Positions 3,001-41,938 of a DNA stretch of 44,614 bases are shown piece by piece. The DNA is taken from assembly GCA_964603435.1 (NCBI GenBank), contig CAZRUM010000003.1, positions 1 to 44,614 of the forward strand, in the 5' to 3' direction. Origin of the DNA: an uncultured Gammaproteobacteria bacterium (GTDB lineage: Bacteria > Patescibacteriota > Patescibacteriia > Magasanikbacterales > UBA922). Numbering within the stretch: the first letter of the stretch is position 1; every line of letters begins with the position of its first letter. Both the position numbers and the translations under genes were made by a program. Under the pieces are notes generated by a model, which saw nothing but the letters and a program-made list of their open reading frames with translations, did no database searches and was not told where the DNA came from.

Positions 3001-6000
3001 GTTCATTCGGTTGATAATTTGGATATGCGGGTTTATTTTGAAATAGATAATCTACATCATATTTTGTAAAATCTACAACACCTTTGAACTCACCAAAATC
3101 AGGAGCAGGAACATTCATCCTAGGATTCCATGCCCAATGCCAAAAATGATAAGTATTTTCAGGAGTATTAGAAAAGGTTTTATCATCTTCATAAGGAGAA
3201 ACCGCAAAAGTATTTGTAGAATATGCAGGGAAAGCAGCACTAATAGGACCCCGGGCAACATTAGCTGGAGAAGATGATAAATCAACTCTTTTGTGCTTAT
3301 AAAGATTATTTTTATAACTTATAACACTCTCATCAAATACTATGTTTTTATTACCATTCTCATCTTCTAATTCTAACCAATCTGATTTAGCCTTATTTCT
3401 ATCTAAATATGCTTGACCTCCTAGTACCAATACATCATAAGTATTCCCCTCGTCGTTATTATCCTGCACAGTAGTATAAATGCTCTTATAGGGAATCATA
3501 CGATCTCTCCAATATATTTCCTTTCCATCATACTTAGCAACATAATCTTCCATTTCCTGTTTTCTTGCTTCTACCATATCTTTACAGCGATTATAGAATA
3601 CTTCAATTTTATGAGATTCGTTATTATAGGCTGAGTCTTGCTTAGTTGTTCCAAAAGCAAAAATATTTAAATCTATATTATCAGGATCATACGACATATA
3701 ACCTGTCATTTCCTCATCAAAATTATAATGATTATAAGATGATTCTACACAATAAGCTCCGGCTCCAGCTTCTCCATCTATTGCCAAATTGAAACCAGCT
3801 GAATCTGAAGATTCATATATATCAAATTTATTTTTTACTTCTTTTGGTAACCAGGTTAGACATGGGTATTCTACTACATTTCCACCTGGAGCTGCTTTTT
3901 TACCCAGTGGCCTACTCTTATCATACTCCAAACAAAAACCTTCTTGTCCCAAATAAGTACTTTGTGTTTGTTTTAATATACAAGTCCCCCTGTCATTAGC
4001 ATCTCCACAATCACGATCATCAAAACAAGGGACATTATCAGTTGGTAAAGTAGTATCCGTAGCATTGTCATAGCGCCCTCCACCAGAACAAATACCAGCT
4101 GGAATAGATTCATAAGTATATGGCCAATAATCAACTACTGAATTTCTATAAGTAACCTTACTATAACCACAGGAACATTCTCCATCCTGACAAACCTGAA
4201 CATTGTCAAATTCATTTTTCCTATAATCTAGCGCAAAACGTTTTACCCCAAGATCATTCTCAAAAACTTCATGTCCTACATTTGGATTCAAAACCAAAGC
4301 CTTAGAAAAAGGAGAATTGTCTTCTGGATAAGATTTGCAAGAAGTTGTTAGTAATTCTTTTTTGATGATTTCATCAGAAAGCTCTTCCACTGCAAAACCT
4401 ATTTCATCCCCACCGACTGGCATAACACAACCAATACCGTTTATACATTGACCTTTTTCTATCAATTTATCTCCCGCGTGGCTACCTGTATTTTCACATC
4501 TCTCTGCACCTTCAGAAGTATTACAATTAAATCTTTTGTCAACATAAACTAAATAGGGTTTATTATCTATATCAATTTGTTGCAAATCACCAACTGAAAA
4601 TTTGTTATAGAGAGAATAACCAGAATATTCTTCGTCATACCAGCTAGTACCACGACTAATATAATTTTCATAATCAAGAAAAGGTAACTCGCGCCCAAGA
4701 CTAGCAGAGGATTCCCACAAAGCACACTCACCACCTGGTCCCATCTCCAAACAACTACCATAGGAATAACATATTTTTTTACGAGTTCCATCAGCTTGCA
4801 AAATACTCTTATAACTTTGACAAGCTAACCATTCATTACAAGTCCTGTCACGATCAACTTTTAAAATTATATTGGCGTCCAAAACACCTGTACTTACTGG
4901 CCGAACAGGTAGATAACGCCCGACCTCTCCACTCGCATAATCTTTCTTTTGACTATTTGCTTCATAAGTAAGAGCTGTGTTATAAATTTTATTTGGCTCA
5001 TCAGTCTTATCAAATAAAACACAGCCATCATTTAAATTTACTTGGCTCTCACATTCTCTTGAACGTCTTTCTACTTCTTGGTCATAAATAATATAATAAG
5101 CACGTCCTGCTGAATCAATTCCGCCAGTATCAGCTTTATCAATTAATTCACGACAATTGTTGGCTGACGATGGACAGACACCTACCAAACCTTCGTACAA
5201 TACTGAACCATTGGAAGGTAATTGATATTCATAATTATGGCGAGGACCACAAGGTTCTGGCATTTCATCAATTTTTCCATCCTTATTTCTATCGATATCC
5301 CTATACCAACCGGAATATTGATTACCATTTTTATCTTCCACCAACGGACGATACACACACAAACCATTACCATTCAATTTTGGATCTTTGAAATAAGCCG
5401 GTCCATTGTCAGATTTAAATTCTCCACAAGATACCTGGTCACTAGTACATAAAGTATCACTATAATTACCTGGATCGTTTTTTACAAAAGTTTCGACAAA
5501 TTCAAAATCTGTGTCGATAGGACTAGTAGACCATTCTTTATATTCGCGCGCAGCTACTCTGGTACAGCCCATATCCTTATCATAACAAATATAATTTTCT
5601 GTATCTGTCAGATAAATTGGTGAATTTACTGGTGTATCGGCTGGAATAATAATTGTAGAATCAACTACCCAATCTTCAATCGCTTTAGCCTCTACTCCAT
5701 ATGGAAGCATAACTTCCTCAACAAAACAACCAGTCTGTCCATTTTCTATCTGACAAGTCCCAAGCTCTTCTGGTTCAACCCCTATTTCCCCCTCTGCTTC
5801 TATTTCAATTTTACATTCACCTACATAATCAACAACATCACTGACACACCACAAATTGTAAACCAAGACATCTTCAGAATCCAGGGTATTATAGGTATCA
5901 TACAAAGCAGTACAACCCACTGCCTCAGGTCGACACAGGCTATCAAAGCCAATTGCAAAAGCAGTTCTATCTCTATCATCTCTGTAAGCCTGACAACCTA

Positions 6001-9000
6001 GAGCCAAACCTGGGAAACCATCGTATGGACTAACATCGCAAGAAGTAGAAATATCATAACCTTCACTAGTTTTCCAAGAATCTTTTATAAGAGCATATTG
6101 ATCTTCCAATCTAGTAACACGTACATTATCCAAATAATAACTCTTTCCAGAAGTACGAGGATCAACAATAAACTTCAGACCAACTTCACTACTAGTAGTA
6201 CCCGTAAATTGTACTGGACCAAATTTATATTCTTGCCATTCATTACCGAGAGATACTGGCAAATTTTGTTGTAAATTTATATCATAAGTAAAACTACTAT
6301 TTTCAAATTCAGCTTGTTTAAAATAAATTTCATTAATATTTTGTGCCTCACCGCGAGCCCAAAAACTCAATTCATACCAAGCATAGCTATCAATATCTTC
6401 ACCAGGTTGAAATATATAAGTTATATCACTTGACGCTTGCAAGGAATACCCACCAACATAAATCGATTCCGGTCTGACTTTGGCAGTAGAGGTCCAGCCA
6501 GTCTGAGCTATTTCCAAAGCAGCATCATCATCTGATGTCGGTTCAAAACCAGCAAAGTAAACTTCTTCTATATTACCACCTTGATTTCCTACATATTTAC
6601 GACAACCATTGGCAATAGCAGGACAAGAAATTGATTCACTAGGAATAGAATAATAAATACAGGTCTGATAGCCTTCATCATAAAAACCACCATTACTACA
6701 GCGTTGGCACTCACCACTACCACCGTCATTACCATTCCAAAGACCACCTTTTCTAGTACAGCTATCTGCTGAATCTAGATTATTATCAACAGCCAGATAT
6801 GCTTTTGTCTTGCGCAGAGGATGACAATCATCTGATACAATCACCGTCTTACTTAAAATTCTATAATATATACTACCTTCTCTATCATAAAGTGCCCGGC
6901 AACCTGAATCAAAACCACGAGCCCCCAGATTGTATGGACTATTTAGATGTAAATTATATATATCTTCATTACAGCTAGCATAATTTTCTTCCAATTCTAC
7001 TTCACTATCACCCGCATACACTGGGGAACCAAGTGGAAAATCTGACCTAAGACTAGCAAAAGCAGTCGCATCCAAATAAGCGACGTCATCAACATCCACT
7101 GGCTTCATCCGATGAATTTTCAACACATAACCTGTCAATTCAGAACCTTCCCAAGAATAATAAGCTTTTTCATTTTCCCCACTAGGATCTTCACAATATT
7201 TTAAATCAATATAATATTCCAAACCTTCACCACCAGCAGACATCTCATCTATGTTGGTAAATTGATCACAACCAGCATAGACACCATTACATTCATTGGC
7301 GCCTTGACTAGAATAGTCATTACCAGGAGTGAAATAAAGTGGAAATTCTTCTGGTTCAAACTCTGTTGCTAACTGTTTATAAGTATCATAACCCACACAC
7401 TCAGCCTGACAGAGATTATCACCAATAATACCAGGAATTTCTGGACTAGTTGGATCAGCTATACTAGAATACAACTGACAACCCACTTCACTTGAGATAC
7501 AAACCTGTGAAAAATCTGCACATTCCTCTGGTCGATCTTTTATAGACACCAGATCAACTTTGGTCTGTGGCCAGTCTATGTCATACTCTCCATCGTAAAT
7601 ATCTTTGTCATAACAACCCAGATAATCTGGTGCTTTTTGCAAATAAACTGGATTACCCTGTCCCCCATCATCCCTCACATCATAAAAAAGATTACAACCA
7701 TCGGCGTCTTCGCTACAAGTGAAGTTGGCAATTTTATTATTAAAATAAATATTTTGATTCCAACTACTTAGTTTTTTATCAACATCAAGCTCTAGGTTTG
7801 TTAGCCAACCTTCTTTATCTCCTTCTAGGGCGTAAGGTTGACAACCCACAGACTCGAGATTACAACGACCATAATCAAGTGTCCTATTTAAATATGGGAT
7901 TACTTCACCTTTATTATTTACATAAGTCTGGCAAGTATTGTATTGTTTATCACAAGTCTCAACCCCTAGTTTCCAAATATTTTTTTCTTGTAAACAATAA
8001 CTATAATAATTTTCTATTTTATTAGTATCCGTTTGACTCTCTTCTTCTGTAAAAATTGTAGTTGAATACTCTACACATTCTGTCCGCCTAACATCTCCGC
8101 CTGAGTCAATTAGCTGTGGACCCACAACCAGAGATTCACAACGAATCTCGGGAATTTTTAAAATCCAATTTGGATTGACAAGATGACAAAAAGGTTTGGC
8201 AGAACTTGGTACCACTATTTCATTACCACTTGAGTCCTTTTCATAATTACAATCCTCAAAACCATTCACCACATTTTCTAAAGTCCAATTTTCTAGATTG
8301 TCAGGATCAGCCCTCAAAGCCGCAATCTCAAAACCAAGTGGCAAAATTCTCGCTTTTCTTAATTTTTGAATATTATAATAACAATAACCATTTTGATAAC
8401 AACGAACAACATCCTGATTATCAATTTCACGCTTTGGTGAAATAAATGACCACTTGGCATGCAACATGTCTTGATCCATTGCCTCTTTAATAGTTAGAGG
8501 GTTATCTTCTGTTCTGCCAACTTCCAAAGCTCTCTGCAAACCAGTATCCATGACACAATTATTAAGACTGAGACCAGCCCCACTCTCTTCACAAGCTGCA
8601 AATTCTGTAAGTAATGGATAATTATTTAACTGTTGATTGGGAAAATCTGTAAATAAAAAGCTGAAAGCTTTCTCGGCCTTTTCTTTATTTAATACAACTT
8701 GACTATAAAAATCTGTAACTGCCTCAGTAGAGGCATCACCTGACGACGATCCAGACAACAAGTCCCCACTCATTAATCTGTCCAATAAACTAGTGGCCAA
8801 AGTATTCAAAAAGACACTCGCAGCCTGAGGTAATATTTGTAACATCCCTGCACCATAAACACCTGCTATTTGTTCAGATGTCATTTTTGAATTATGAGTT
8901 GCAGAAAATAATTCCATTTCTTTGGCCACGGTTTGACCAGGAGTTTTTATCTTATCAGAAATAAGATCTGTAACTGCTTTTATGCCTCCCCCTTCTAATC

Positions 9001-9808
9001 TTGATACTTCGGCGGATTTTTCTTCCTTAGCTTTCAAACGATCGAGTTGTGCCATAGCCCCCATTGCAATACCAAAATCTGTATCTTTGACACGAATAGA
9101 ATCATGAAAAGTACGAGCAATCAATCCACGACCACCAGGACCATATTTTCTTTCAAAGGCCTCAGCGCTCCAAGAATCGCTTAAGTTTTGCCAATTACAT
9201 TTTGGGGTAGGCCCGCCACTGTTCGCACCATTGACTCCATACTCATTATCATACATATTGCGCAAGCCAATCTGAATATACAATTGAGCTTGTAAATTTG
9301 GTGTCTGACAAAGATTGAGACCAAAAGGTTGGCCAAATGATTCTATACCCTCAGCTACTGAATCCAAAGCTACATTTTTAAAATAATCACCTGGAGAATT
9401 TTGGTAAATAAGAGCCCCCTTACCCTTACCACCATAAGACACGTACTTAGCTGCATCATAAGCCAACTTACGTGTAAAATATGACATACCATTCATCAAA
9501 GCTGACATAGCAGCAGCTGTCATGCCGGTTTCTACTTGTTCGAGTATTGACACAATTGTAGAAGGTGTATCCGCAACTACAGCTACAGGTGCTCCTAACG
9601 CATTTTTACCTGCATTTGAAGCCGCCTTAGCTGCCTCTGCCGAGTTCGCTATTTTATCTAATGATTCAAATAAAGAAGTCAAAGGGGGTAGCGCAGCCTG
9701 TGCACTATTTTTAGAAGTCAAAGAAAAAATCCCAAACAAATTCACCAACAAAAAAATCACCAATAGAATACTTAGGCCTGCTTTATTTTTTTTATTTAAA
9801 AAATACAT
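1..9808 (-). CDS. giant secreted cysteine-rich surface protein; 5' end complete, 3' end beyond window (at least 3269 codons)
   Basis: Hand translation of the reverse complement from ATG 9808-9806 stays open in one frame to base 2. The track lists no ORF in this frame because it never reaches a stop; the four minus ORFs listed inside it are in another frame. N-terminus MYFLNKKNKAGLSILLVIFLLVNLFGIFSLTSKNSAQA looks like a signal peptide. Many Cys modules follow. Confidence 0.85.
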   Translation of the reverse strand, partial: MYFLNKKNKAGLSILLVIFLLVNLFGIFSLTSKNSAQAALPPLTSLFESLDKIANSAEAAKAASNAGKNALGAPVAVVADTPSTIVSILEQVETGMTAAAMSALMNGMSYFTRKLAYDAAKYVSYGGKGKGALIYQNSPGDYFKNVALDSVAEGIESFGQPFGLNLCQTPNLQAQLYIQIGLRNMYDNEYGVNGANSGGPTPKCNWQNLSDSWSAEAFERKYGPGGRGLIARTFHDSIRVKDTDFGIAMGAMAQLDRLKAKEEKSAEVSRLEGGGIKAVTDLISDKIKTPGQTVAKEMELFSATHNSKMTSEQIAGVYGAGMLQILPQAASVFLNTLATSLLDRLMSGDLLSGSSSGDASTEAVTDFYSQVVLNKEKAEKAFSFLFTDFPNQQLNNYPLLTEFAACEESGAGLSLNNCVMDTGLQRALEVGRTEDNPLTIKEAMDQDMLHAKWSFISPKREIDNQDVVRCYQNGYCYYNIQKLRKARILPLGFEIAALRADPDNLENWTLENVVNGFEDCNYEKDSSGNEIVVPSSAKPFCHLVNPNWILKIPEIRCESLVVGPQLIDSGGDVRRTECVEYSTTIFTEEESQTDTNKIENYYSYCLQEKNIWKLGVETCDKQYNTCQTYVNNKGEVIPYLNRTLDYGRCNLESVGCQPYALEGDKEGWLTNLELDVDKKLSSWNQNIYFNNKIANFTCSEDADGCNLFYDVRDDGGQGNPVYLQKAPDYLGCYDKDIYDGEYDIDWPQTKVDLVSIKDRPEECADFSQVCISSEVGCQLYSSIADPTSPEIPGIIGDNLCQAECVGYDTYKQLATEFEPEEFPLYFTPGNDYSSQGANECNGVYAGCDQFTNIDEMSAGGEGLEYYIDLKYCEDPSGENEKAYYSWEGSELTGYVLKIHRMKPVDVDDVAYLDATAFASLRSDFPLGSPVYAGDSEVELEENYASCNEDIYNLHLNSPYNLGARGFDSGCRALYDREGSIYYRILSKTVIVSDDCHPLRKTKAYLAVDNNLDSADSCTRKGGLWNGNDGGSGECQRCSNGGFYDEGYQTCIYYSIPSESISCPAIANGCRKYVGNQGGNIEEVYFAGFEPTSDDDAALEIAQTGWTSTAKVRPESIYVGGYSLQASSDITYIFQPGEDIDSYAWYELSFWARGEAQNINEIYFKQAEFENSSFTYDINLQQNLPVSLGNEWQEYKFGPVQFTGTTSSEVGLKFIVDPRTSGKSYYLDNVRVTRLEDQYALIKDSWKTSEGYDISTSCDVSPYDGFPGLALGCQAYRDDRDRTAFAIGFDSLCRPEAVGCTALYDTYNTLDSEDVLVYNLWCVSDVVDYVGECKIEIEAEGEIGVEPEELGTCQIENGQTGCFVEEVMLPYGVEAKAIEDWVVDSTIIIPADTPVNSPIYLTDTENYICYDKDMGCTRVAAREYKEWSTSPIDTDFEFVETFVKNDPGNYSDTLCTSDQVSCGEFKSDNGPAYFKDPKLNGNGLCVYRPLVEDKNGNQYSGWYRDIDRNKDGKIDEMPEPCGPRHNYEYQLPSNGSVLYEGLVGVCPSSANNCRELIDKADTGGIDSAGRAYYIIYDQEVERRSRECESQVNLNDGCVLFDKTDEPNKIYNTALTYEANSQKKDYASGEVGRYLPVRPVSTGVLDANIILKVDRDRTCNEWLACQSYKSILQADGTRKKICYSYGSCLEMGPGGECALWESSASLGRELPFLDYENYISRGTSWYDEEYSGYSLYNKFSVGDLQQIDIDNKPYLVYVDKRFNCNTSEGAERCENTGSHAGDKLIEKGQCINGIGCVMPVGGDEIGFAVEELSDEIIKKELLTTSCKSYPEDNSPFSKALVLNPNVGHEVFENDLGVKRFALDYRKNEFDNVQVCQDGECSCGYSKVTYRNSVVDYWPYTYESIPAGICSGGGRYDNATDTTLPTDNVPCFDDRDCGDANDRGTCILKQTQSTYLGQEGFCLEYDKSRPLGKKAAPGGNVVEYPCLTWLPKEVKNKFDIYESSDSAGFNLAIDGEAGAGAYCVESSYNHYNFDEEMTGYMSYDPDNIDLNIFAFGTTKQDSAYNNESHKIEVFYNRCKDMVEARKQEMEDYVAKYDGKEIYWRDRMIPYKSIYTTVQDNNDEGNTYDVLVLGGQAYLDRNKAKSDWLELEDENGNKNIVFDESVISYKNNLYKHKRVDLSSSPANVARGPISAAFPAYSTNTFAVSPYEDDKTFSNTPENTYHFWHWAWNPRMNVPAPDFGEFKGVVDFTKYDVDYLFQNKPAYPNYQPNEPIFTGPADVCVAQGWKLSVEYRFDVVSSEANNYPGTKSQVPRTVNIASSTFEITYPDKTKVADLYNEIQNDKYFLPEGYQKAKRTELNDDLDNPVCADSDLLLQKDCGLVFCEPTMWGEENEEKISNSEGYDKAVCCDNEIWSLSRTMQRWAWEFIGKNSILLRTETGLVSDGYSFGCLQKDVGENIKWCNNEVPSNDQTSIKSIFSFAPHPTANRVSYGTIMHPPRVWPESNVVTDYSYFYKQQDIKQSLEDSYYDPPESDGRWNISTIAMSPGPWMSDVNNVANMVNRSKYEGVLNISDLDRVYFVPLAFPFGAEGRLPALLSKDMYIDFNKLRNGVKSDFLENISNASYSDSESKIFTRGRNKTIKNIVWSYHVDEVDLVDLSFNNYENGLFSTEDTAIVNALADERNKITDRYVMLFADSTEVLQKWFGVESIYNTDYVPTNGREESFHLNDPFATVCKHDTQEYSGLSGGEEDKGFNTNNWLAIGMDFNKDGEFLGYVSRFCFAHNNADAEDAGIMLATIATLNNQCVDFAQVYKDPGADFNMTTDKAWTNRVWEFAPKYNTDSKRHPSPFYKSFLEKDQPNKPFGAMILSDKGTISENFQDPKVLRHSSFLSYANFGIPYSCRTTWLSSISIDYGFTDYCGSLKNLLDNDSKRVFSDNFVDSLSERDKPEAQEAIFDVFKKVFINKTLKPDSTTGFPYKFAGEGEEENLLPNYGVGLLNDEDRSGDLGNGGNETFPPKIYSLNPDICVSAESDRCTAGEENNFTINMRNGTMNNYSLGFSTDGVPIPDEDGIDGGKLDGYPDPIVAYRTLPAILRFFVTVDDNHMPLKRVMINWDDGDDDLFIENGLFKNSKPYCASKDEFNYEEEELGRCRNTSMTCLDNADCTFMGVGNTICAKTGHYITQPEGYSTLGERRFGDAPRACTPSYKEYFKSLSCDLASANFDIESDSLPGIGLLTDEMKREIYKLNSDAEKVCVFKPKVQVLDNWGWCNSLDG

Positions 9809-10603: not shown

Positions 10604-11458
10604 TTATTTTTGTACTTTCGTATTTTTAGTGTTTAGTATATCTGTTATTTCTTTCCACTGCTCTACTAACAACTCCTCTGCTCTAATTTTTTCATTCCCT
10701 GTTACAGTATTTAATATATGTTTAATTTGCTCAGCTTCAATTTTTAAACCCACTGCCAAATTCCGCCATAACTGTTTACGCTTATTAGCAAACCCTACTC
10801 TTACTACTTCGAAAAACTCTTTATCTGTAAAGGTGGTTGAGTGGTTAGGTGGTCGAGTGGTGATGTGCAAAACCGCACTATCTACCTTTGGGCTCGGCCA
10901 AAAATTTCCTTTAGAAACTTTGGCTATTTTTTTAGACTGCCCATAGTATTGAACTGACACTGCCAGCATACTCATATCTCCTGGCTTGGCTACAATACGA
11001 TCAGCCACTTCTCTTTGCACCATGACAGTAATGGACTCTGGTTTATTTTCTAATTCAAGCAGTGTTCTTAAAATATTGGAAGTAATTTGATATGGTAGAT
11101 TTGCTACCACCTTATAACCTTTAAATTTTTTACTTTCTTCTTCTATCTTGTTTAAAACATTTCCCCAAATTACTTCTAAATTTTCTGAAGAATTTTCTTG
11201 CCAATATTTTTCTAATTTTTTTTCAATTTCAAAAGCTAAAACTTTTTTAACTTTTTCTGTAAGTGCAAAAGTAAGTACACCAAAACCAGGTCCAATTTCT
11301 ACTACAATATCAGACTTTTTTAAATCAGCTGCCTCTAGCATTTTCTTTACAGGTGAATCAGTAATCAAATAATTCTGCCCATATTTTTTGGACGGACTTA
11401 AATTATACTTTTTGCAAAGTTCTTGAAGGTAAGTTGGACGAAATAAATCTTTGTACAT
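10604..11458 (-). CDS. rsmA: 16S rRNA (adenine1518/1519-N6)-dimethyltransferase
   Basis: KYGQNYL...VVEIGPGFGVLT SAM motif and NLPYQITS motif. The internal ATG at 11458 (MYKDLF) is preferred over the track start at 11479. Confidence 0.9.
   Translation of the reverse strand: MYKDLFRPTYLQELCKKYNLSPSKKYGQNYLITDSPVKKMLEAADLKKSDIVVEIGPGFGVLTFALTEKVKKVLAFEIEKKLEKYWQENSSENLEVIWGNVLNKIEEESKKFKGYKVVANLPYQITSNILRTLLELENKPESITVMVQREVADRIVAKPGDMSMLAVSVQYYGQSKKIAKVSKGNFWPSPKVDSAVLHITTRPPNHSTTFTDKEFFEVVRVGFANKRKQLWRNLAVGLKIEAEQIKHILNTVTGNEKIRAEELLVEQWKEITDILNTKNTKVQK
10831..10867. repeat. AGGTGGTY octamer array inside rsmA
   Basis: Plus strand AGGTGGTT GAGTGGTT AGGTGGTC GAGTGGTG ATGTG. Encodes HITTRPPNHSTT on the coding strand. 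Confidence 0.7.
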
Positions 11459-11498
11459 AGAAATACATAGAGATAACATAGAGATAAAATTGAGATAA
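11456..11498. repeat. tandem 11-mer array (CATAGAGATAA-type) downstream of four-helix-bundle gene 1
   Basis: CATAGAAATA, CATAGAGATAA, CATAGAGATAA, AATTGAGATAA read directly. Inverted partners lie at 11896-11938. Confidence 0.7.
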
Positions 11499-11502
11499 TA
11501 AC

Positions 11503-11892
11503 TTATCTTTTATCTTTTTGCCTATGCCAATCGTTTATCTGATTATTAATTTTAATTTTAAGTTGTTCATATCTTTTTTCTAGCTCTAACCATTTTTCTT
11601 TTTTTACATACTTTTGACTATAAGCTATCCAGAGATGACTTTGGGTTTCTTCTACTTCACCACGTACAATATAGAATACTCTAATTTTATCTTTGAAATG
11701 AAATCTACCATGTGCTTCGGCAGTATTAGCTACTATAGAATTGGATGATCTTCTAGTTTGGCTTATTAAAGAAAACTTTTCTTCTTCTGGATAATTTTTG
11801 GTAATATTATAGACTTCCTTTACCAGTTCAAATCCTTCTTGCCAAATATCAGTCTGATAAAATTTTTTATATTTTATTTTTTCACCCTCCAT
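11503..11892 (-). CDS. four-helix-bundle protein (23S rRNA intervening-sequence protein family)
   Basis: Family-typical motif RRSSNSIVANTAEAHGR and a length of about 120-130 aa. Confidence 0.85.
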   Translation of the reverse strand: MEGEKIKYKKFYQTDIWQEGFELVKEVYNITKNYPEEEKFSLISQTRRSSNSIVANTAEAHGRFHFKDKIRVFYIVRGEVEETQSHLWIAYSQKYVKKEKWLELEKRYEQLKIKINNQINDWHRQKDKR

Positions 11893-11980
11893 AAATTATC
11901 TCTATTTATCTCACGAGCAAAGCGAGTGTATCTCAATTTATTAAAATGTTTTTTAGCACAAACACCACGCTCCACTCTCT

Positions 11981-13744: not shown

Positions 13745-13787
13745 GATTTAAGATTTAAGACTTATGACATAAGACTCATTGACATTT
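13745..13787. repeat. heptamer array (GAYWTAA-type) at the 3' end of four-helix-bundle gene 2
   Basis: GATTTAA GATTTAA GACTTAT GACATAA GACTCAT, then GACATTT. The inverted copy GACATAA GACTTAA GATATAG lies at 14141-14161. Confidence 0.65.
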
Positions 13788-14132
13788 TATAAGACCATTC
13801 AACATCCTACCAATTTTTCTAGCCTTATTGGTCAATTCTTCTGCCTGTTTCAAATTAATATATTTTAAATGTAAAGTTAATATAAAATAATATTTAGTCT
13901 CTTCAAGTGAGGTATCAGACATTGTATAAAAATGTTTTCTATCTTTTGATGTTTTTCTTTTTGTTCCTTCTACAATATTAGCTACGATTGAGACCGATGA
14001 TCTTCTCACTTGAGACACTAAACCATACAACTCGTGTTTAGGAAAATCCTCTGTAATCTTATAAACCTCCAAAACTAATTTATGTGCCTCAAACCACACA
14101 TCTAATTTTCTCCATTTTTCTAATGTTTCCAT
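13776..14132 (-). CDS. four-helix-bundle protein (23S rRNA IVS protein family)
   Basis: RRSSVSIVANIVEGTKR motif; 118 aa. Confidence 0.85.
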   Translation of the reverse strand: METLEKWRKLDVWFEAHKLVLEVYKITEDFPKHELYGLVSQVRRSSVSIVANIVEGTKRKTSKDRKHFYTMSDTSLEETKYYFILTLHLKYINLKQAEELTNKARKIGRMLNGLIKCQ

Positions 14133-14161
14133 AGCCCTCCCTATATCTTAAGTCTTATGTC

Positions 14162-15265
14162 CTATACCTCTTTTAACCAACGTAAATAACTTTCAACAAA
14201 AGGTTCAACGTCCCCATCAAGCACTGCTTTATCATCTGTAGTTTCATATTTACTACGCAAATCTTTTACCATATGGTATGGATGCAGGACATAACTACGA
14301 ATTTGATTCCCCCACTCTGGACTCTTGTATTCACCGCGAAGTTTTAATCTTTCTTCTTCATCTTTTTCTTCCTGAAGTTTTTGTAATCTTGATTGTAAAA
14401 CCTTCATGGCCACTTTTTTATTTTGCAATTGTGATTTTTCATTTTGAATAGCAACTGTGATATTGGTTGGGAGATGAACTATACGCACAGCTGAGTAAGT
14501 GGTGTTTACAGACTGACCACCATGACCACCAGCCATAAAGGTATCAATACGTAAATCATTCTCATCAATTTTTACGTCACCTTCATCTTCCATTTCTGGA
14601 ATTACTTCGACAAGTGCAAAAGAAGTATGGCGCATTTTTTCTGCATCAAAAGGTGAAATACGCACCAAACGATGTGTACCATGTTCGGATTGCAAATAAC
14701 CATAAGCAAACTGCCCCTCTACACGAAAGGTAGTTGATTTTATCCCAGCTTCATTTCCCTTGGCTTCGTCAAGAATTGTCACTTTCCAATCTTTTTTCTC
14801 AGCATAGCGTAAATACATACGAAGTAACATCTCTGCCCAGTCTTGAGCTTCTGTTCCACCACTACCAGCATGAATAGAAACAATGGCATTTTTTTCATCA
14901 TGTTTGCCATCCAATAAAGTATTGAACTCTAACTTGTCTACTTTTTTAATAAGCTCTTCATAATCATTTTCAATTTCTTCACGCATATTTACTTCTCTGT
15001 CTTCTTCGTCTAGTTTTGCGACTTCCAGCAATTCTTGTGATTCTTTATCAAGCATTTGCCAACTCTCAAATTCTTCTTTTAGAAAACCAAGGCGCTTACT
15101 CTTTTTGGTCGCTTTCTCTTGATCATTCCAAAAATCTGGAGCATTCATAACACTTTCTAATTCTTGAACTTCCTTCTGTTTTTCTTCCAATCTCAACATC
15201 ACTCGCAAGTTAGCCAGTTTTTCACGAAGTTCTCCTAAATTTTTCACCAAATCATGCATTTCCAT
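14162..15265 (-). CDS. prfB: peptide chain release factor 2
   Basis: SPF motif (RISPFDAEKMRHTS) and GGQ motif (GGHGGQSVN). Single continuous frame. The track start at 15301 is a TTG lying inside an upstream terminator, so ATG 15265 (MEMHDLV) is preferred. Confidence 0.9.
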   Translation of the reverse strand: MEMHDLVKNLGELREKLANLRVMLRLEEKQKEVQELESVMNAPDFWNDQEKATKKSKRLGFLKEEFESWQMLDKESQELLEVAKLDEEDREVNMREEIENDYEELIKKVDKLEFNTLLDGKHDEKNAIVSIHAGSGGTEAQDWAEMLLRMYLRYAEKKDWKVTILDEAKGNEAGIKSTTFRVEGQFAYGYLQSEHGTHRLVRISPFDAEKMRHTSFALVEVIPEMEDEGDVKIDENDLRIDTFMAGGHGGQSVNTTYSAVRIVHLPTNITVAIQNEKSQLQNKKVAMKVLQSRLQKLQEEKDEEERLKLRGEYKSPEWGNQIRSYVLHPYHMVKDLRSKYETTDDKAVLDGDVEPFVESYLRWLKEV

Positions 15266-19395: not shown

Positions 19396-19428
19396 AAAAA
19401 TAAAAAGACCACCTATGATTAGGTGGTC
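19396..19428 (-). terminator. yidC intrinsic terminator
   Basis: Minus strand GACCACCT AATCAT AGGTGGTC followed by TTTTTATTTTT. Confidence 0.7.
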
Positions 19429-19452
19429 AGGTAGTTAGGTAGTTAAGTGATT
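19421..19452. repeat. AGGTGGTY octamer array, four units, between the yidC stop and its terminator
   Basis: AGGTGGTC AGGTAGTT AGGTAGTT AAGTGATT. The first unit is the terminator arm; the last overlaps the stop codon. Confidence 0.75.
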
Positions 19453-22166: not shown

Positions 22167-22325
22167 GCGAACAACCCCTCCACCCTTCGGGCACCTCCCC
22201 TTTAGGGCACACTATCCTTTAGGGAGAATGGGGAGGGAATTTGAAAAATACTTTCCCCTCCTCCACTTTTCGCCAGGGGACGAATCCTCTAGAGAGCTAA
22301 GGAAGGAGGTCAGGAGGTGGGTTCC
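22167..22325. repeat. modular GC-rich intergenic repeat, copy 1
   Basis: Block A (22167-22202) matches 42048-42083 at 35 of 36. Block B TTTAGGGCACACTATCCTTTAGGG (22201-22224) is identical to 42123-42146. CCTCCCC/GGGGAGG hairpin arms. Confidence 0.8.
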
Positions 22326-22752: not shown

Positions 22753-22811
22753 TTTATTTAAAATTCCAACTGTAAAATAACAAATTCCAAATAAATTACA
22801 ACTAACAATTT

Positions 22812-23174: not shown

Positions 23175-23228
23175 ATTTGTAATTTGAAAGTTATTTGGAA
23201 TTTGGTAGTTGTAATTTGTAATTTTCAA

Positions 23229-24077: not shown

Positions 24078-24103
24078 ACAAAAAACCACCTCAAAGAGGT
24101 GGT
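24078..24103 (-). terminator. trpS intrinsic terminator
   Basis: Minus strand ACCACCTC TTT GAGGTGGT followed by TTTTTTG. Confidence 0.7.
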
Positions 24104-24136
24104 CAGGTGGTTAAGTAGTTAGGTGGTAAGGTATTT
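24097..24136. repeat. AGGTGGTY octamer array, five units, between the trpS stop and its terminator
   Basis: AGGTGGTC AGGTGGTT AAGTAGTT AGGTGGTA AGGTATTT. Confidence 0.75.
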
Positions 24137-30885: not shown

Positions 30886-30967
30886 TGCCGATGGTGGGAC
30901 TCGAACCCACACGCCGTGAAGCATGCACACCTGAAGCGCACGTGTATACCAATTTCACCACATCGGC
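30886..30967 (-). tRNA. tRNA-Leu (anticodon CAG), long variable arm, no encoded CCA
   Basis: Hand-folded cloverleaf: acceptor GCCGATG/CATCGGC, anticodon stem TGCGC/GTGCA with loop TTCAGGT, T arm GTGGG TTCGAGT CCCAC. Confidence 0.85.
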
Positions 30968-35224: not shown

Positions 35225-36053
35225 AATTGATAACAGAGAAATAGAAATAATCACAGCTCACGTGACTGCTAAACCACGTGAGTTTTTAGTTGCACATCCA
35301 GAATATAAACTTAGCAAAGTGGCAAAGTGGAAAATAACCAGATTAATTAAAAAAAGAGAAAGTGGCGTTCCCCTTGCATATTTACTCGGAGAAAAAGAAT
35401 TCTTTGGTCTAGATTTTAAAGTTAACAAACACACTTTAATTCCCCGCCCTGATACGGAACTTATGGTGGAGACCATACTTCACCACCTGACCACTTCACC
35501 ACCTGACCACACAACACTTATAGACGTAGGGACTGGCACAGGTTGTATACCTATCGCTATTTTAGATCGAATCCGTAAATCAGGATTATCCGTAATCCGT
35601 AATTCTTATGCTATAGATATTTCTAACAAAGCACTGCGAATTGCTAAAAAAAATGCAAAAACACATAACGTAAATATTAAATTTCTACATGGCAACCTAC
35701 TCTCACCATTTCTAAAAAACCAAAAGCTGATAGCCTATAGCCAGAAGCTAATAATTACTGCCAATCTCCCCTACCTCACAGAAGAACAATTTGCTAACGA
35801 AGCTTCTATCAGGCACGAACCGAAGTCAGCGCTCGTCGCAGAAAACAAAGGCCTCGCACTTTACGAAGAGCTTCTTAAACAAATTCAATCACTACTTTCA
35901 ACTTCCGACTTTAAACTTTCGACTTATTTAGAAATCGATCCCGACCAAGCAGAGCCAATTATTCCTCTGATAAAAAAATATCTACCTAAGGCAGATATTC
36001 AAATAAAAAAAGATTTGAGTGGATTAGATAGGGTGGTTATTATAGAGGCTTGA
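35208..36053 (+). CDS. prmC: release factor glutamine N5-methyltransferase
   Basis: [16 protein letters not shown] and NLPY (an NPPY variant). Overlaps the prfA end by 17 nt. Confidence 0.85.
35471..35512. repeat. octamer array (ACCACCT sense) inside prmC, with an exact 16-nt tandem duplication
   Basis: TTCACCACCTGACCAC occurs twice (35479-35510). Encodes [13 protein letters not shown]. Confidence 0.75.
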
Positions 36054-36666: not shown

Positions 36667-37767
36667 TTAATAACTAACACTCCCCCGCCCATTTACAACT
36701 TCAACCCAAATCTTCCCAGGTTTTAATTTTATTTCTTCGCCGGTAATATCGTAAAATCTTGTTCGGCTGGTTTTATTTTCCTTGACCCATCTTCCGAGTA
36801 TATCAATACCATTATAAAATACCACAGCTTCACCGCTACCAACCGTCTCCATACCAAGTCGACCAATCTCGTCCAATACTTCTGTCTCCACATACTGCAC
36901 AACAATAGTATCTGCTTCTATTAGAGTTCCATCTTTGTCTGTATGAGGATAGCCCATTTGATAACGCGCAAATCTAGCTGTGCTAGTATTATATTTCCAG
37001 ACAGCTTCGTAAACTGGTGGTAGAAAAGAAACGATTATCTCCGTCACTTGTGGTTGAGTGGTTAGGTGGTTAGGTGATGAAGTGTTAAATAGCCAACCCT
37101 GATACTCATCTACTTCATAGAGCTCATCATAGCTCTCCAAAGCTTTTTTCCACATTTTTGAAGAGGTATAGACATTATGCGGAGCACTCCTGTCCTCACT
37201 CCGCCAAAAATACCAACCACGATAAAATTCATTTAGATTAAATATTTTATTTTCTTCAATTAAGTTTAAGGCATCGGGAGATCCACCCACATGCATATAC
37301 ATGGCGTCACCATATTCCTGTAGCCAATCTAAAAAGTATGGCCTAGCACTACGCACCGGACCGATTTTTAATGCTTCAACAGTCTCTGGATAGACCAACA
37401 TAAAGCGCGTATAATTTGCCTCTACCGGTGCTTCGTAAACTACACTAGCACTGGCTATCCCAGACTGTGGTCTAGCGCTATAGTGATTTTCTACCATTAC
37501 AGTCACCAATTTTGGATTGACTTCATTTTTTGTTTTTACGCAGACACCGTCAAGTACACGACGAAAATTACAATCTTTTACAATGTCATCTTGTAAGGAC
37601 AGGTCGCGACCTGTCCCTCCACTACCACTAAATTTCGCTCCAAAATAATTCCAGCTAAAAAATACCAACAAGACTAACCCAAATAAAAATACAATCCCAG
37701 CCAAAACATAAACAAATCCAGGCTCACCAGGTCTGATTTTTTTTAATTTTGATAAATTTATTTTCAT
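36667..37767 (-). CDS. DUF3048 domain protein, membrane anchored
   Basis: N-terminal TM, then MVENHYSARPQSGIASASVVYEAPVEANYTRFMLVY, recalled as the DUF3048 signature. Confidence 0.8.
   Translation of the reverse strand: MKINLSKLKKIRPGEPGFVYVLAGIVFLFGLVLLVFFSWNYFGAKFSGSGGTGRDLSLQDDIVKDCNFRRVLDGVCVKTKNEVNPKLVTVMVENHYSARPQSGIASASVVYEAPVEANYTRFMLVYPETVEALKIGPVRSARPYFLDWLQEYGDAMYMHVGGSPDALNLIEENKIFNLNEFYRGWYFWRSEDRSAPHNVYTSSKMWKKALESYDELYEVDEYQGWLFNTSSPNHLTTQPQVTEIIVSFLPPVYEAVWKYNTSTARFARYQMGYPHTDKDGTLIEADTIVVQYVETEVLDEIGRLGMETVGSGEAVVFYNGIDILGRWVKENKTSRTRFYDITGEEIKLKPGKIWVEVVNGRGSVSY
37048..37087. repeat. AGGTGGTY octamer array inside the DUF3048 gene
   Basis: TTGTGGTT GAGTGGTT AGGTGGTT AGGTGATG AAGTGTTA. 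Encodes SSPNHLTTQPQ. Confidence 0.7.
37597..37616. repeat. 20-nt perfect GC-rich palindrome in frame
   Basis: GGACAGGTCGCGACCTGTCC encodes GTGRDLS in the post-TM linker. Confidence 0.7.
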
Positions 37768-40295: not shown

Positions 40296-40381
40296 AAACT
40301 TAGTGGACCACACACAAACGCAAAGCCTGGGTGCGATGGACAATAATATAACACAATTAATATTAGATGTCAAGGCAGGCT

Positions 40382-40413
40382 TACACCTAACTACTCAACC
40401 ACCTGACCACTAA
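40382..40413. repeat. octamer array, inverted orientation, downstream of four-helix-bundle gene 4
   Basis: Minus strand reads TAGTGGTC AGGTGGTT GAGTAGTT AGGTGTA. Confidence 0.75.
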
Positions 40414-40415
40414 TA

Positions 40416-40799
40416 TTAAACATTACCAATTGATTGTTCTGTTGATTTAATTTCTGACCAAAGCATTTTACCTATTTCATCTGCAATTTCAATAATTCTA
40501 TCATATTTTTCTCTTTCTAACCAGCCCTCTTTTATAGCAAAATTACATAAATATCTAGACTCTGCTAGTGAACCGTAAGAAATCTCATAAAAATTCAATT
40601 GCACTTTTTTCCTCTTACGAGAATACCCTTCTATATAATTCAATATAACTGACAGAGTCGCTCTTTTAAGTTGAGATGTGGTGGAATATAGTTCTTCTTT
40701 TGGAAATTCCTTAGCTAACTTATAAATAAAATGCACGTAATCATCCATTAAAAATTTTAACTTATTTTGAAAAGGTGACATTGTATTTTCCAAAGTCAT
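40416..40799 (-). CDS. four-helix-bundle protein (23S rRNA IVS protein family)
   Basis: LKRATLSVILNYIEGYSRK motif; 127 aa. Confidence 0.8.
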   Translation of the reverse strand: MTLENTMSPFQNKLKFLMDDYVHFIYKLAKEFPKEELYSTTSQLKRATLSVILNYIEGYSRKRKKVQLNFYEISYGSLAESRYLCNFAIKEGWLEREKYDRIIEIADEIGKMLWSEIKSTEQSIGNV

Positions 40800-40800
40800 A

Positions 40801-40856
40801 AAGTAATCAGGTGATTAGGTGGTAAGGTGGTAAAGTGGTTGAGTAGTTAAGTGCTC
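40801..40856. repeat. AGGTGGTY octamer array, seven units, filling the rodA to four-helix-bundle spacer
   Basis: AAGTAATC AGGTGATT AGGTGGTA AGGTGGTA AAGTGGTT GAGTAGTT AAGTGCTC. Overlaps the rodA stop. Confidence 0.8.
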
Positions 40857-41938
40857 CTAGAAACTGACAGAGCTATTCCTACAAGAAGTAAATTTATAAG
40901 CATAGATGAGCCCCCGTAGCTCACAAATGGCAAGGTGACACCCGTGACTGGTAAAAACCCCGTCGCCCCTCCTATATTGACGAGCATTTGCACCAAAAAT
41001 AAAAATAGAATACCTAAAACTAAATAAGTAGAAAATTCATCACGACTACGCCCAGCAATTTTTAAAAGACGCCATAAAATAATAAAATACAAAACTAAAA
41101 CCAAACTTGCCCCCAAGAAGCCTAATTCCTCAGCAATAACAGAAAAAATAAAATCAGTCTGAGCTTCTGGTAAAAAATGTAATTGACTCTGTGAACCAAA
41201 ACCAAGTCCCCTGCCCCAAAAATTTCCAGAACCAATAGCAATAACCGATTGTGTCACATTATAGCCAGCCCCCAATGGATCACGTGCCGGATCAATAAAG
41301 GTAAGGATTCTTTCTTTTTGATAATCTTTGAAAAGAAGACCCCAAGCAGATACAAAAACTACAATGCCTATTAAAATCAAACCAATAATATATCTTTTTT
41401 TCTTGACAGTCATAAATAAAAGACCGAACCAAGTACCAAGTAAAACCAAAGCTGAACCCAAATCTGGTTGGAGCATGATAAGACCAGCCAATAAAAAAGT
41501 AATAATACCTGAACTAATTATAAATTGTGATTTTTCAAAACGACGACCATGTTGAGAAATCCACCAAGCCAAAAATAAAACCAAAGCAACTTTGGCAAAC
41601 TCTGCTGGCTGAAAAGAAAAACCAAAAACTCTAAACCAACCAGTGGTTCCACGAACATTAACACCAAAAAATAAAACCAACACTAACAAAAGTAAAGAAA
41701 AAATATAAACAAGCTTTACACTACCACGATAAAAAGACACGTGCATAAAAGCTGCCAAAATTAACAAACCCAACCCCAGACCCAAAGCTAAAACTTGAGT
41801 AGGAAAATAGATCAATTCTTCGCCATGTGACAAATCCACACTATATATAGCTGACAGTCCCACAGCAATCAAAACCAAAACAGCCACCAAAAGTAGCCAG
41901 TCAAATTTTCGCAGAAAGATTGATTTGAGATTAATCAT
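40847..41938 (-). CDS. rodA: SEDS family peptidoglycan polymerase (RodA/FtsW)
   Basis: LQPDLGSALVL and PEAQTDFIFSVIAEELGF motifs; 10 TM segments. Confidence 0.88.
   Translation of the reverse strand: MINLKSIFLRKFDWLLLVAVLVLIAVGLSAIYSVDLSHGEELIYFPTQVLALGLGLGLLILAAFMHVSFYRGSVKLVYIFSLLLLVLVLFFGVNVRGTTGWFRVFGFSFQPAEFAKVALVLFLAWWISQHGRRFEKSQFIISSGIITFLLAGLIMLQPDLGSALVLLGTWFGLLFMTVKKKRYIIGLILIGIVVFVSAWGLLFKDYQKERILTFIDPARDPLGAGYNVTQSVIAIGSGNFWGRGLGFGSQSQLHFLPEAQTDFIFSVIAEELGFLGASLVLVLYFIILWRLLKIAGRSRDEFSTYLVLGILFLFLVQMLVNIGGATGFLPVTGVTLPFVSYGGSSMLINLLLVGIALSVSRST

Follow-up and report, generated by a model that had tools for sequence, protein, structure and literature searches.

The window, that is, the whole 44,614-nt stretch of DNA analysed here, contains four genes (IVP1 to IVP4) that are members of the PF05635/TIGR02436 four-helix-bundle (S23p/23S_rRNA_IVP) family. 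All four ORFs matched both PF05635 (E values of 3.8e-21 to 1e-35; 75.7-122.6 bits against a cut-off of 33.8) and TIGR02436 (89-114 bits against a cut-off of 24). An earlier note on this DNA had described four paralogous four-helix-bundle genes, each placed between housekeeping genes on the same strand; the profile matches, all on the (-) strand, and the identities of the neighbouring genes agree with this description.

11503..11892, (-) strand: IVP1 gene, 129 aa, flanked by genes for a DUF4015 protein and KsgA; PF05635 E 2.7e-29, TIGR02436 match
13776..14132, (-) strand: IVP2 gene, 118 aa, flanked by genes for RF2 and TsaC; PF05635 E 1e-35, TIGR02436 114 bits
22812..23174, (-) strand: IVP3 gene, 120 aa, flanked by genes for a methyltransferase and YraN; PF05635 E 3.8e-21, TIGR02436 92 bits
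40416..40799, (-) strand: IVP4 gene, 127 aa; PF05635 E 6.9e-25, TIGR02436 89 bits

The gene at 22812 had been recognized correctly, except for its start, which is the ATG at 23174 and not the TTG at 23228. IVP4 lies between a 137-aa ORF and RodA, has a further in-frame ATG at 40781 (giving a 121-aa form) and matches the PDB entry 2gsc (XCC0516; five chains in this entry) with an E value of 2e-8. The DGR accessory protein Avd (bAvd) has a related four-helix-bundle fold, and weak matches to PF22296 (bAvd) were obtained for two paralogues (40.2 and 47.2 bits). With NF033474, three paralogues scored 34.6, 50.3 and 21.8 bits, whereas IVP3 had no match. Avd identity was rejected, since all NF033474 scores were below the cut-off of 80 and the window ORFs scanned included no reverse transcriptase. 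We know of no description of Avd genes with inverted-array brackets.

Arrays bracketing the four genes

Each of the four genes is enclosed by short tandem arrays that stand in opposite orientation on its two sides, and the elements so delimited span 396-474 nt. The arms are as follows (TRF, Tandem Repeats Finder).

11455..11498, (-) strand: IVP1 3' arm, 11-mer ACATAGAGATA x4.1 (TRF), exact core 11487-11497
11893..11940, (-) strand: IVP1 5' arm region, TTATCTC-type units, exact core 11929-11939
13745..13785, (-) strand: IVP2 3' arm, GATTTAA/TAAGACT units (TRF), exact core 13766-13776
14133..14165, (-) strand: IVP2 5' arm, exact core 14151-14161, adjoining the RF2 stop codon
22745..22811, (-) strand: IVP3 3' arm, AATTCCA/AATTACA units, exact core 22781-22794
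23176..23228, (-) strand: IVP3 5' arm, heptamer ATTTGGA x4.6 (TRF 23193-23224), exact core 23191-23204
40384..40410, (-) strand: IVP4 3' arm, G/U-rich as RNA, beginning 5 nt past the stop codon
40827..40853, (-) strand: IVP4 5' arm, A/C-rich as RNA, inside the octamer array 40801-40856

The cores form exact inverted repeats of 11 bp at IVP1 (11487-11497 with 11929-11939), 11 bp at IVP2 (13766-13776 with 14151-14161), 14 bp at IVP3 (CAAATTCCAAATAA) and 15 bp at IVP4 (40388-40402 with 40835-40849; TAACTACTCAACCAC). These are the four longest flank-to-flank inverted repeats among the 39 genes of the window; in the other 35 genes the longest repeat was at most 10 bp and mostly 5-8 bp, and by our calculation the IVP genes would take the top four ranks by chance about once in 82,000 cases. 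The perfect 15-bp repeat around IVP4, already pointed out in the earlier note, is indeed present, and 200 shuffles of the flank gave no repeat longer than 12. It extends to 27 nt with 89% complementarity (40384-40410 with 40827-40853) at an inter-arm distance of 416 nt. On the other hand, the seven upstream and four downstream octamers counted before were too many, as four upstream and only one downstream lie within one mismatch of AGGTGGTT; Tandem Repeats Finder reported a period of 8 at 40798-40837 (5 copies, 78% matches). A GGGAGGG Shine-Dalgarno-like run comes after the IVP2 5' arm.

The four window cassettes have four unrelated arm sequences. It had been proposed that the other three cassettes share the architecture of IVP4, each with private repeat units. 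This holds for the brackets of IVP1 to IVP3, which are built of their own units, but the unit of the octamer cassette is not private. Copies of the IVP4 15-mer arm with at most one mismatch occur at 10833, 24107 and 37050, related arrays are present at 19419-19445 and 35477-35510, and the AGGTGGTY octamer was also found at terminator-like hairpins and within coding linkers.

19407..19445, (-) strand: solo octamer array and hairpin after YidC, GACCACCTA-ATCA-TAGGTGGTC followed by T5 in sense
24084..24132, (-) strand: solo octamer array and terminator-like hairpin after TrpS, ACCACCTC-TTTG-GAGGTGGT followed by T6 in sense, loop without an ORF
40345..40373, (-) strand: predicted sigma-70-like promoter, TTGACA-17-TG-TATATT, 11/12, a consensus match only

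The predicted promoter is located directly downstream of the IVP4 cassette and ahead of the genes for the 137-aa ORF and L25. Because this promoter-like site comes after the cassette, the latter may end the RodA transcript rather than sit within a polycistron.

Octamer arrays without an IVP gene, as at the two hairpins above, are what one would expect if arrays and hairpins filled spacers generally, or if the ORF had been inserted into the loops of terminator hairpins, in which case the bracket would be a property of the site. We consider such a by-product very improbable on the basis of the comparisons with other genes and with related loci given below.

The bracket across the family

The Patescibacteria (CPR) genome set comprised 80 loci, with 89 IVP ORFs from about 80 genomes and 567 other ORFs, and the bracket was measured as an ungapped helix score with a threshold of 11. 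The median score was 17 for IVP ORFs and 8 for other ORFs, and the threshold was reached by 85% of the former versus 7% of the latter (p = 2e-35). Similar fractions (87% and 10%, respectively; p = 3e-28) were obtained in 80 metagenome loci. With an earlier measure, RNA.duplexfold on 160/110-nt flanks, the difference had a p value of 4e-19, although that measure was noisy and returned long gapped pseudo-duplexes. Two of the top-scoring other ORFs were divergent four-helix-bundle genes missed by the HMM. The inverted bracket is specific to the four-helix-bundle family and is found family-wide. The threshold score is attained by 85-87% of IVP ORFs but by no more than 7-10% of the others, which also argues against arrays as a general filling of spacers, even though a few housekeeping genes (RF2 in L008 and EF-P in L053) do lie between two opposite arrays.

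Over the family, the median element length is 434 nt (5th-95th percentile 403-481), with a median spacing of 11 nt from arm to ATG and 5 nt from stop codon to arm, and 101 of 120 cassettes (84%) are co-oriented with both neighbours. The protein itself is under strong purifying selection (median dN/dS of IVP ORFs 0.10, 113 pairs), and its conserved residues are common to the IVP paralogues although their array units differ greatly.

The arrays consist of about 4-7 units with a length of 7-8 nt, or of 11 nt in one case, and the CPR units have a common periodic CA[T/C] core with a strongly A/C-biased 5' arm. The solved homologue of the family has been described as a homopentameric toroid (PMC4990558). 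Repeats of this number and period, together with the five chains of the 2gsc homologue and the bAvd-like profile matches, which point to a nucleic-acid-associated relative, would suit an explanation in which the arrays are putative periodic binding sites, in RNA or DNA, for a pentameric protein that autoregulates or packages its own transcript, the inversion being secondary. A minority of elements with arrays in the same orientation on both sides (L039, L157/L161 and L085) would also be compatible with it. However, the arrays are inverted in at least 85% of elements, the complementarity between the two arms of an element exceeds the sharing of units, and the units are very different between paralogues that have the same conserved protein residues. 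An explanation by binding sites is therefore improbable in our opinion.

Brackets of this type are not confined to Patescibacteria. In cyanobacterial plasmids, six of eight copies were bracketed by inverted heptamer arrays; these copies slot between cas6 and cas4, between cas10 and cmr3 or among trb genes, and some of them (L082 and L086) run antisense to the adjacent genes. The bracketed copies include AVA_RS28115 on plasmid C of Trichormus variabilis ATCC 29413 (L084), HUN01_RS02755 of Nostoc edaphicum (L086) and, between cas10 and cmr3, AWQ21_RS15215 of Picosynechococcus PCC 7003 (L087). GxxExxY (TIGR04256), another family of small genes, which we take to have a PD-(D/E)XK-type fold, has a similar bracket, including a perfect 44-bp repeat in L004.

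Occupied and empty sites in related genomes

Related loci were searched for with an alignment of IVP4-like proteins, the alignment of the four paralogues having no conserved stretch. In the genome and metagenome collections, the nearest relatives of IVP4 reached no more than about 66% identity, and column-wise covariation of orthologous arms was therefore replaced by a comparison of own-arm with cross-element pairing. At an ORF identity of 75-85%, own-arm pairing was 17.5 versus 13.3 for cross-element pairing (103 pairs favoured the element's own arms and 32 the cross-element combination), and at 60-75% the values were 16.6 and 9.5, respectively. As judged from these comparisons, the two arms of each element co-evolve in such a way that they stay complementary. 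DNA-level upkeep or gene conversion between the arms could explain the complementarity equally well.

The arms of related ORFs located in different contexts remained cross-complementary (score 14.6; the most distant pairs compared scored 9.9, and other ORFs had a median of 8). The related pairs comprised 24 in different contexts and three in the same context. Because related ORFs elsewhere keep cross-complementary arms, arms and ORF move as one unit and are inherited jointly. A target-hairpin model, in which the arms belong to the site, was rejected on the same ground.

Conserved synteny allowed occupied and empty sites to be compared directly. The gene order in the window is RF2-[IVP2]-TsaC-DUF4015-[IVP1]-KsgA-227aa. 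In L009 an IVP4-like gene is present at RF2/TsaC and the DUF4015/KsgA spacer is empty, whereas L003 has no IVP gene at RF2/TsaC, only a solo array, and carries one at KsgA/227aa. A landmark downstream of KsgA, GTTATCCCCA, is kept in all four genomes compared. Cassette sites are thus polymorphic (occupied or empty) among syntenic relatives, although occupied and empty sites were too diverged for junctions to be placed base-exactly. The solo array at the empty RF2/TsaC junction of L003 could be taken as a bracket belonging to the site, but no remnant of the IVP1 unit is seen in the empty DUF4015/KsgA spacer of L009, which is difficult to reconcile with that explanation. The search for empty sites in related genomes, suggested in the earlier note, was thus successful. 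The same note regarded positional conservation without flank symmetry as evidence against cassettes; the pattern found was clearly different, and this favours the cassette reading.

Relation to rRNA intervening sequences and the level at which the arms act

The origin, mobility and function of bacterial intervening sequences (IVSs) and of the very large S23p family have been debated since the early 1990s, and the competing hypotheses have been reviewed (PMC4990558). ORF-bearing 23S IVSs are known from Coxiella burnetii, Leptospira, Xanthomonas and Brucella. The Coxiella IVS (428-444 nt) has a 28-bp terminal stem with an S23p ORF in the loop and three to four tandem heptamers ahead of the start codon; RNase III cuts within the stem, and the ORF is reported to be decaying and probably untranslated (PMC4990558). 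The cassettes described here are very similar. They contain the same protein family (S23p/PF05635) in the loop and have nearly the same length (median 434 nt), the insert is enclosed by a terminal inverted-repeat stem of ~27-28 bp (27 nt with 89% complementarity at IVP4), heptamer- or octamer-type tandem repeats of variable copy number stand right before the start codon, and the distribution is sporadic, which suggests horizontal transfer. Two differences should be noted: the cassettes are located in spacers of protein-coding operons and not in helix 25/45 of 23S rRNA, and their ORF is under strong purifying selection, in contrast to the reportedly decaying Coxiella ORF. The window cassettes thus have the terminal stem, the S23p ORF in the loop and the size of an IVS, but not the 23S location. 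Neither the window nor 943 kb of related loci yielded any rRNA, the sole Rfam match in the window being one tRNA, and rRNA signature motifs were absent from the 169 loci searched; a domain-V-like 15-mer in L041 was rejected as rRNA for want of Rfam support. A survey of 16S/23S rRNA insertions in CPR reported 23S_rRNA_IVP ORFs and short insertions at classical IVS sites (PMC11270868). The lineage is the same, but the survey covered rRNA genes only, whereas the cassettes here lie between protein-coding genes, and we noted no mention of inverted repeats in it.

Folding the cassettes with their flanks, as the earlier note had proposed, predicted terminal arms closing all four of them in both MFE and centroid structures. 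The IVP4 fold (40376-40860, (-) strand) had a z score of -3.3 and the IVP2 fold one of -2.5; the folds of IVP1 (z = -1.1) and IVP3 (z = -0.6) were unremarkable overall. We consider that the cassettes are best understood as mobile, IVS-type elements with a terminal stem that folds at the RNA level and probably undergoes RNase III processing, with a probability of roughly 55%. Such an element would be a unit of about 400-480 nt made up of a 5' short tandem array, a four-helix-bundle ORF and the same array inverted, and, judging by the 84% co-orientation, it would usually be co-transcribed with its host operon. The two arrays would then pair as a dsRNA stem of ~20-30 bp with the whole ORF in the loop, and RNase III would cut this stem, by analogy with rRNA IVSs, for which such cutting has been demonstrated experimentally. 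Such a cut would free the IVP mRNA or control it, and would break the host transcript at the same place. With its arm stopping ~11 nt ahead of the ATG, the stem would also keep the ribosome-binding region covered for as long as it is neither opened nor cut. Ribosomes translating the 360-nt ORF could, in turn, block such a long-range stem. No match to RNase III was found among the window ORFs scanned.

The earlier suggestion of a mobile or RNA-processed cassette is therefore supported in part, by the discrete stem-plus-ORF units, the family-wide bracket, the occupied and empty sites, the relocation together with the arms and the predicted terminal stems, but its RNA-processing side gained no support from wobble pairs. 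Among the mismatches in 75 helices, 78 were G:U and 110 were A:C in the sense strand. There was no G:U excess, and wobble pairs thus give no sign that pairing of the sense RNA is under selection. Because many of the mismatches stem from register shifts between unit variants, we regard the comparison as uninformative and not as evidence against an RNA stem. The A/C-rich 5' arm was likewise rejected as evidence of strand polarity: an inverted repeat is the same from both strands, so the bias is uninformative on gene orientation and on RNA versus DNA.

The lack of a G:U excess would be expected if the arrays were the ends of a foldback-type mobile element acting as DNA, through single-strand hairpins or cruciforms, with an incidental RNA stem. 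Here the ends would be recognized by a recombinase or nuclease, either supplied by the host or acting in trans, with the four-helix-bundle protein as an accessory factor. The joint relocation of arms and ORF and the polymorphic sites would also fit, as would the solo arrays of the same unit scattered even over coding linkers, like derivatives of mobile repeats, and the brackets of the same kind around GxxExxY genes, with a 44-bp perfect repeat in L004. However, a sequence-specific transposase is hard to reconcile with four copies whose arms differ completely within one genome, and a scan of window ORFs detected no transposase, integrase or reverse transcriptase. The close match to rRNA IVSs, with stems that are proven RNase III substrates (PMC4990558), would also be left unexplained. 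On balance, we find a DNA-level element unlikely; it is compatible with an IVS-type cassette and differs only in the molecule in which the stem acts.

Known small mobile units were also considered. MITEs, foldback transposons and integron cassettes resemble the present elements as small units with inverted ends that are present or absent between conserved genes; the terminal inverted repeats of foldback transposons are made of tandem short repeats, and integron attC sites are recognized by structure and not by sequence. An IS or MITE was rejected because the arms are unrelated among the four copies and no transposase was detected in the scanned window ORFs. An integron cassette was rejected because arms are present on both sides instead of a single 3' attC, and the cassettes are dispersed among housekeeping genes rather than arrayed at intI/attI.

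In the literature searched, we found no description of inverted arrays around non-rRNA four-helix-bundle genes, although an early mention (Ralph & McClelland 1993, 1994) is possible. A broader proposal, possible but less likely than not, is that rRNA IVSs are only the part so far seen of a large, undescribed class of mobile cassettes with a stem-plus-ORF design in operon spacers of Patescibacteria and Cyanobacteria. Their spread would depend on structure, through rapidly co-evolving inverted arrays in place of conserved ends, with a pentameric protein acting on the arrays in RNA processing or mobility and with short arrays throughout the genome as footprints. As cargo, such a class would carry the four-helix-bundle protein, perhaps along with GxxExxY proteins; its footprints would comprise repeats like the short tandemly repeated repetitive (STRR) sequences, array-type terminators and in-frame linker inserts. 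Cyanobacterial STRR heptamers, which are described as dispersed repeats, are similar to the present arrays in being tandem 7-nt intergenic units with genome-specific unit families, and in the cyanobacterial plasmid copies examined, heptamer arrays of the STRR type make up the inverted brackets around the four-helix-bundle genes. No paper tying STRRs to this family was found.

If rRNA IVSs were one habitat of a general cassette found mostly between protein-coding genes, tests of the system would no longer be tied to the ribosome and could use culturable cyanobacteria with bracketed copies in their cas, trb and RNR operons, and the intergenic short tandem arrays of these genomes would have a candidate explanation. 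Operon transcripts of CPR would then contain long dsRNA stems at intervals, and this would affect how mRNA is processed in organisms that are not yet culturable. Calls of function by guilt-by-association would also need care. For example, '23S rRNA IVP' has been listed as a CRISPR-linked gene (PMC10910872), a link that could stem from cassettes carried along in operons and not from a shared function.

Four bracketed genes in the window

At ~36% G+C, the window carries a long run of minus-strand housekeeping genes (KsgA, TsaC, RF2, YidC, NusA, YraN, TrpS, TrpB, RNase J, RodA and L25), with RF1, PrmC and L31 on the plus strand. Four ORFs belong to PF05635/TIGR02436, the 'four helix bundle protein' or 'S23 ribosomal protein' family, and are here called IVP1 to IVP4:

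11503-11892, minus strand: IVP1, PF05635/TIGR02436
13776-14132, minus strand: IVP2, PF05635/TIGR02436
22812-23174, minus strand: IVP3, PF05635/TIGR02436
40416-40799, minus strand: IVP4, PF05635/TIGR02436

As the earlier note had described, each occupies a short spacer between housekeeping genes on the same strand. Pairwise identity among them was only 20-31%, and they are therefore not recent duplicates. The nearest relatives of IVP4 came, with few exceptions, from Patescibacteria (CPR; Magasanik-, Moran- and Nomurabacteria), and a metagenome contig in ENA encodes an identical protein.

The perfect 15-bp inverted repeat claimed around IVP4 (40388-40402 with 40835-40849) is present, and lies within a 27-nt repeat of 89% complementarity. 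Thirty-nine genes of the window were compared by the longest exact inverted repeat that their two 70-nt flanks share: the IVP genes ranked first to fourth (11, 11, 14 and 15 bp), and none of the remaining 35 exceeded 10 bp, most having 5-8. The arms of these brackets consist of short units in tandem: IVP4 has octamers, IVP1 an 11-mer, and IVP2 and IVP3 heptamer-like units. The similar architecture proposed for the other three cassettes was borne out. The arrays around IVP4 are, however, more degenerate than the count of seven and four AGGTGGTY octamers had implied.

Two other features of the window should be mentioned. A minus-strand ORF of >3,266 codons (1-9797), with a signal/TM-like N-terminus, runs off the window start and probably encodes a giant surface protein. 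In addition, the GTG at 30961 with which the mechanically called RNase J ORF begins falls within a minus-strand tRNA gene (30886-30967; Rfam, 52 bits); the true RNase J start must therefore lie further downstream.

A bracket shared across the family

Using an alignment of IVP4-like proteins as the query, we collected 80 loci from separate GTDB genomes, the great majority of them Patescibacteria, and scored every ORF by the best ungapped inverted repeat between its start-proximal and stop-proximal flanks. The median bracket score was 17 in 89 IVP ORFs and 8 in 567 other ORFs, and scores of at least 11 were found in 85% and 7% of them, respectively (Mann-Whitney p = 2e-35). Repeating the test on 80 metagenome loci gave 87% versus 10% (p = 3e-28). 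High-scoring 'other' ORFs were divergent four-helix-bundle genes missed by the HMM used (L022 and L047), one GxxExxY (TIGR04256) gene, in L004, whose bracket is a perfect 44-bp repeat, or housekeeping genes that chanced to fall between two opposite arrays; many of the low-scoring IVP genes reflected windowing artefacts or imperfect arrays, and a few had arrays of like orientation on the two sides. The stem-plus-ORF unit is thus specific to the family and family-wide.

Its anatomy is uniform. Elements had a median total length of 434 nt (5th-95th percentile 403-481), with 11 nt from the 5' arm end to the ATG and 5 nt from the stop to the 3' arm start (medians), and encoded proteins of 115-126 aa. 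CPR elements are strongly enriched in A and C in the 5' arm and rich in G and T in the 3' arm, and their units of 7-8 nt have a CA[T/C] core in common. Outside CPR, inverted heptamer arrays bracketed six of eight cyanobacterial plasmid copies, which were slotted between cas6/cas4, cas10/cmr3, RNR subunits or trb genes.

On three of these plasmids (L085, L087 and L088), cassettes lay at cas6|cas4 (twice) and cas10|cmr3. The '23S rRNA IVP' has been listed as CRISPR-linked (PMC10910872), a link that hitch-hiking of the cassettes, and not their function, may explain. A minority of elements (L039, L157/L161 and L085) had long arrays of a single unit type in direct, not inverted, orientation on the two sides of the ORF, for example AAAAGCT x9 upstream and AAAAGCC x9 downstream in Pseudanabaena. 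Inverted arrays also flanked GxxExxY genes of ~130 aa in L004 (2281-2680, 44-bp perfect) and L005 (1386-1779, score 13); on these two cases, a second small-gene family seems to use the same vehicle.

Joint movement of arms and ORF

Empty sites in related genomes, which had been proposed as a check, were observed by synteny. The gene order in the window is DUF4870-RF2-[IVP2]-TsaC-DUF4015-[IVP1]-KsgA-227aa. In L009, which has the same order, an IVP4-like gene 60% identical to IVP4 (IVP2 versus IVP4, 31%) occupies RF2|TsaC, and both DUF4015|KsgA and KsgA|227aa are empty. In L003, RF2|TsaC lacks an IVP gene and KsgA|227aa carries one, as it also does in L004. The landmark GTTATCCCCA downstream of KsgA was kept in all four genomes compared, so that the cassette was gained or lost in the interval from the KsgA stop to GTTATCCCCA. 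Since different subfamilies hold the same RF2|TsaC spacer in syntenic genomes (IVP4-like in L009, 3934-4387; IVP2 in the window), a recurrent landing site, or cassette replacement there, is suggested. IVP4-like genes also follow RF2 in L007, L008 and L010. The L003 spacer (~2090-2135) contains a solo CATCAC heptamer array, which the RF2 frame enters and in which it stops, which leaves RF2 with a short His-rich tail at its C-terminus.

Within an element, the two arms co-evolve. At 75-85% ORF identity, own-arm pairing scored 17.5, versus 13.3 when the 5' arm was matched with the 3' arm from the other element of the pair (own-arm pairing higher in 103 pairs, lower in 32), and at 60-75% identity the values were 16.6 and 9.5. 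Where related ORFs had non-homologous genes on both sides, their arms were still cross-complementary (14.6, compared with 9.9 in the most distant pairs of the same comparison and 8 as the median of other ORFs); 24 related-ORF pairs lay in different contexts and 3 in the same context. Arms and ORF therefore move together, and the possibility that the arms are pre-existing hairpins of the target site is ruled out by these different-context pairs.

The IVP ORF is under strong purifying selection (median dN/dS 0.10, 113 pairs) and shared the orientation of its two neighbours in 84% of cases, versus 62% for other ORFs. No recombinase gene was found among the window ORFs scanned, and the arms differ in sequence from copy to copy, which points to movement by recognition of structure rather than sequence, or by recombination through dispersed arrays.

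Candidate RNA step, known systems and solo arrays

Folding each cassette with its flanks, as had been proposed, gave predicted sense-strand RNAs in which the terminal arms close the whole ORF in all four cases, in both MFE and centroid structures (overall z-scores: IVP1 -1.1, IVP2 -2.5, IVP3 -0.6, IVP4 -3.3). In the RNA mechanism that we infer from these predicted folds and by analogy with rRNA intervening sequences, the unit would be transcribed, usually together with the host operon, and the two arrays would pair into a dsRNA stem of ~20-30 bp; cleavage of this stem by RNase III would release or regulate the IVP mRNA and sever the host transcript, and the stem would also mask the ribosome-binding region. 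A wobble test on sense-strand helices gave no support for RNA-level pairing (78 G:U versus 110 A:C), and action of the arms at the DNA level is thus still a serious rival. Because a strong promoter-like site lies directly downstream of the IVP4 cassette (40373-40345, minus strand) and no intrinsic terminator was detected, this cassette may belong to the 3' part of the RodA transcript.

The best-characterised ORF-bearing intervening sequence (IVS), that of Coxiella burnetii 23S rRNA, is 428-444 nt long, with a 28-bp terminal stem, a loop filled by the S23p ORF, a variable number (3 or 4) of tandem GACAGAT heptamers ahead of the start codon, and RNase III cleavage within the stem at the first repeat (PMC4990558). 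The cassettes resemble it feature for feature, RNase III cleavage being presumed in their case, but differ in host sequence. The defining location inside 23S rRNA does not apply to them, since none of the ~160 IVP4-like loci (943 kb) lay in rRNA and the window contains no rRNA. We would file them as working like an IVS rather than as IVSs in the strict sense. In CPR, 23S_rRNA_IVP ORFs are also reported within 16S and 23S rRNA insertions (PMC11270868), which places the family in both habitats in this lineage. Readings as DGR Avd, integron cassettes or IS/MITE elements were rejected, as each lacks some of the features that define it, among them, in the window ORFs scanned, a reverse transcriptase, integrase or transposase. 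Full-text searches, whose coverage did not extend to the two founding Leptospira papers, turned up no account of inverted arrays around non-rRNA four-helix-bundle genes and no link between STRR-type repeats and this family. We consider these results of fairly high interest, because they carry the IVS problem beyond the ribosome, into operon spacers of two phyla, and open it to experiment in culturable cyanobacteria.

The octamer had been regarded as private to the IVP4 cassette, but near-identical arrays occur elsewhere in the window:

24084-24132: octamer array at terminator-like hairpin after TrpS, no ORF enclosed
19407-19445: octamer array at terminator-like hairpin after YidC, no ORF enclosed
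10831-10861: in-frame octamer array in KsgA CDS, variable loop
35477-35510: in-frame octamer array in PrmC CDS, inter-domain linker
37050-37088: in-frame octamer array in DUF3048 protein CDS, inter-domain linker

In both hairpins the 5' stem side runs on into an array of 3-4 octamer units, of ACCACCT type when read in sense, and a T-run follows; they look like ORF-less miniatures of the IVP4 bracket. The in-frame arrays are always A/C-rich in the sense strand of the gene. In L003, the KsgA loop matching the array site of the window and the KsgA C-terminus bear that genome's own CATCAC unit, read as a His/Ile/Thr-rich peptide. Together with the in-frame arrays of the window, this suggests genome-wide invasion or homogenisation by the arrays. 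Several different heptamer arrays (AATTAGA, TTACTAT x3.6 and ATAGCTG x2.9) and a small palindrome, with no ORF enclosed, lie in the spacer between the divergent genes for the peptide-binding protein and L31 (33090-33260), and the TRF table lists a 17-nt tandem repeat, CCTCCCCTTTAGGGCA x2.9, in the NusA/YraN spacer (22177-22224).
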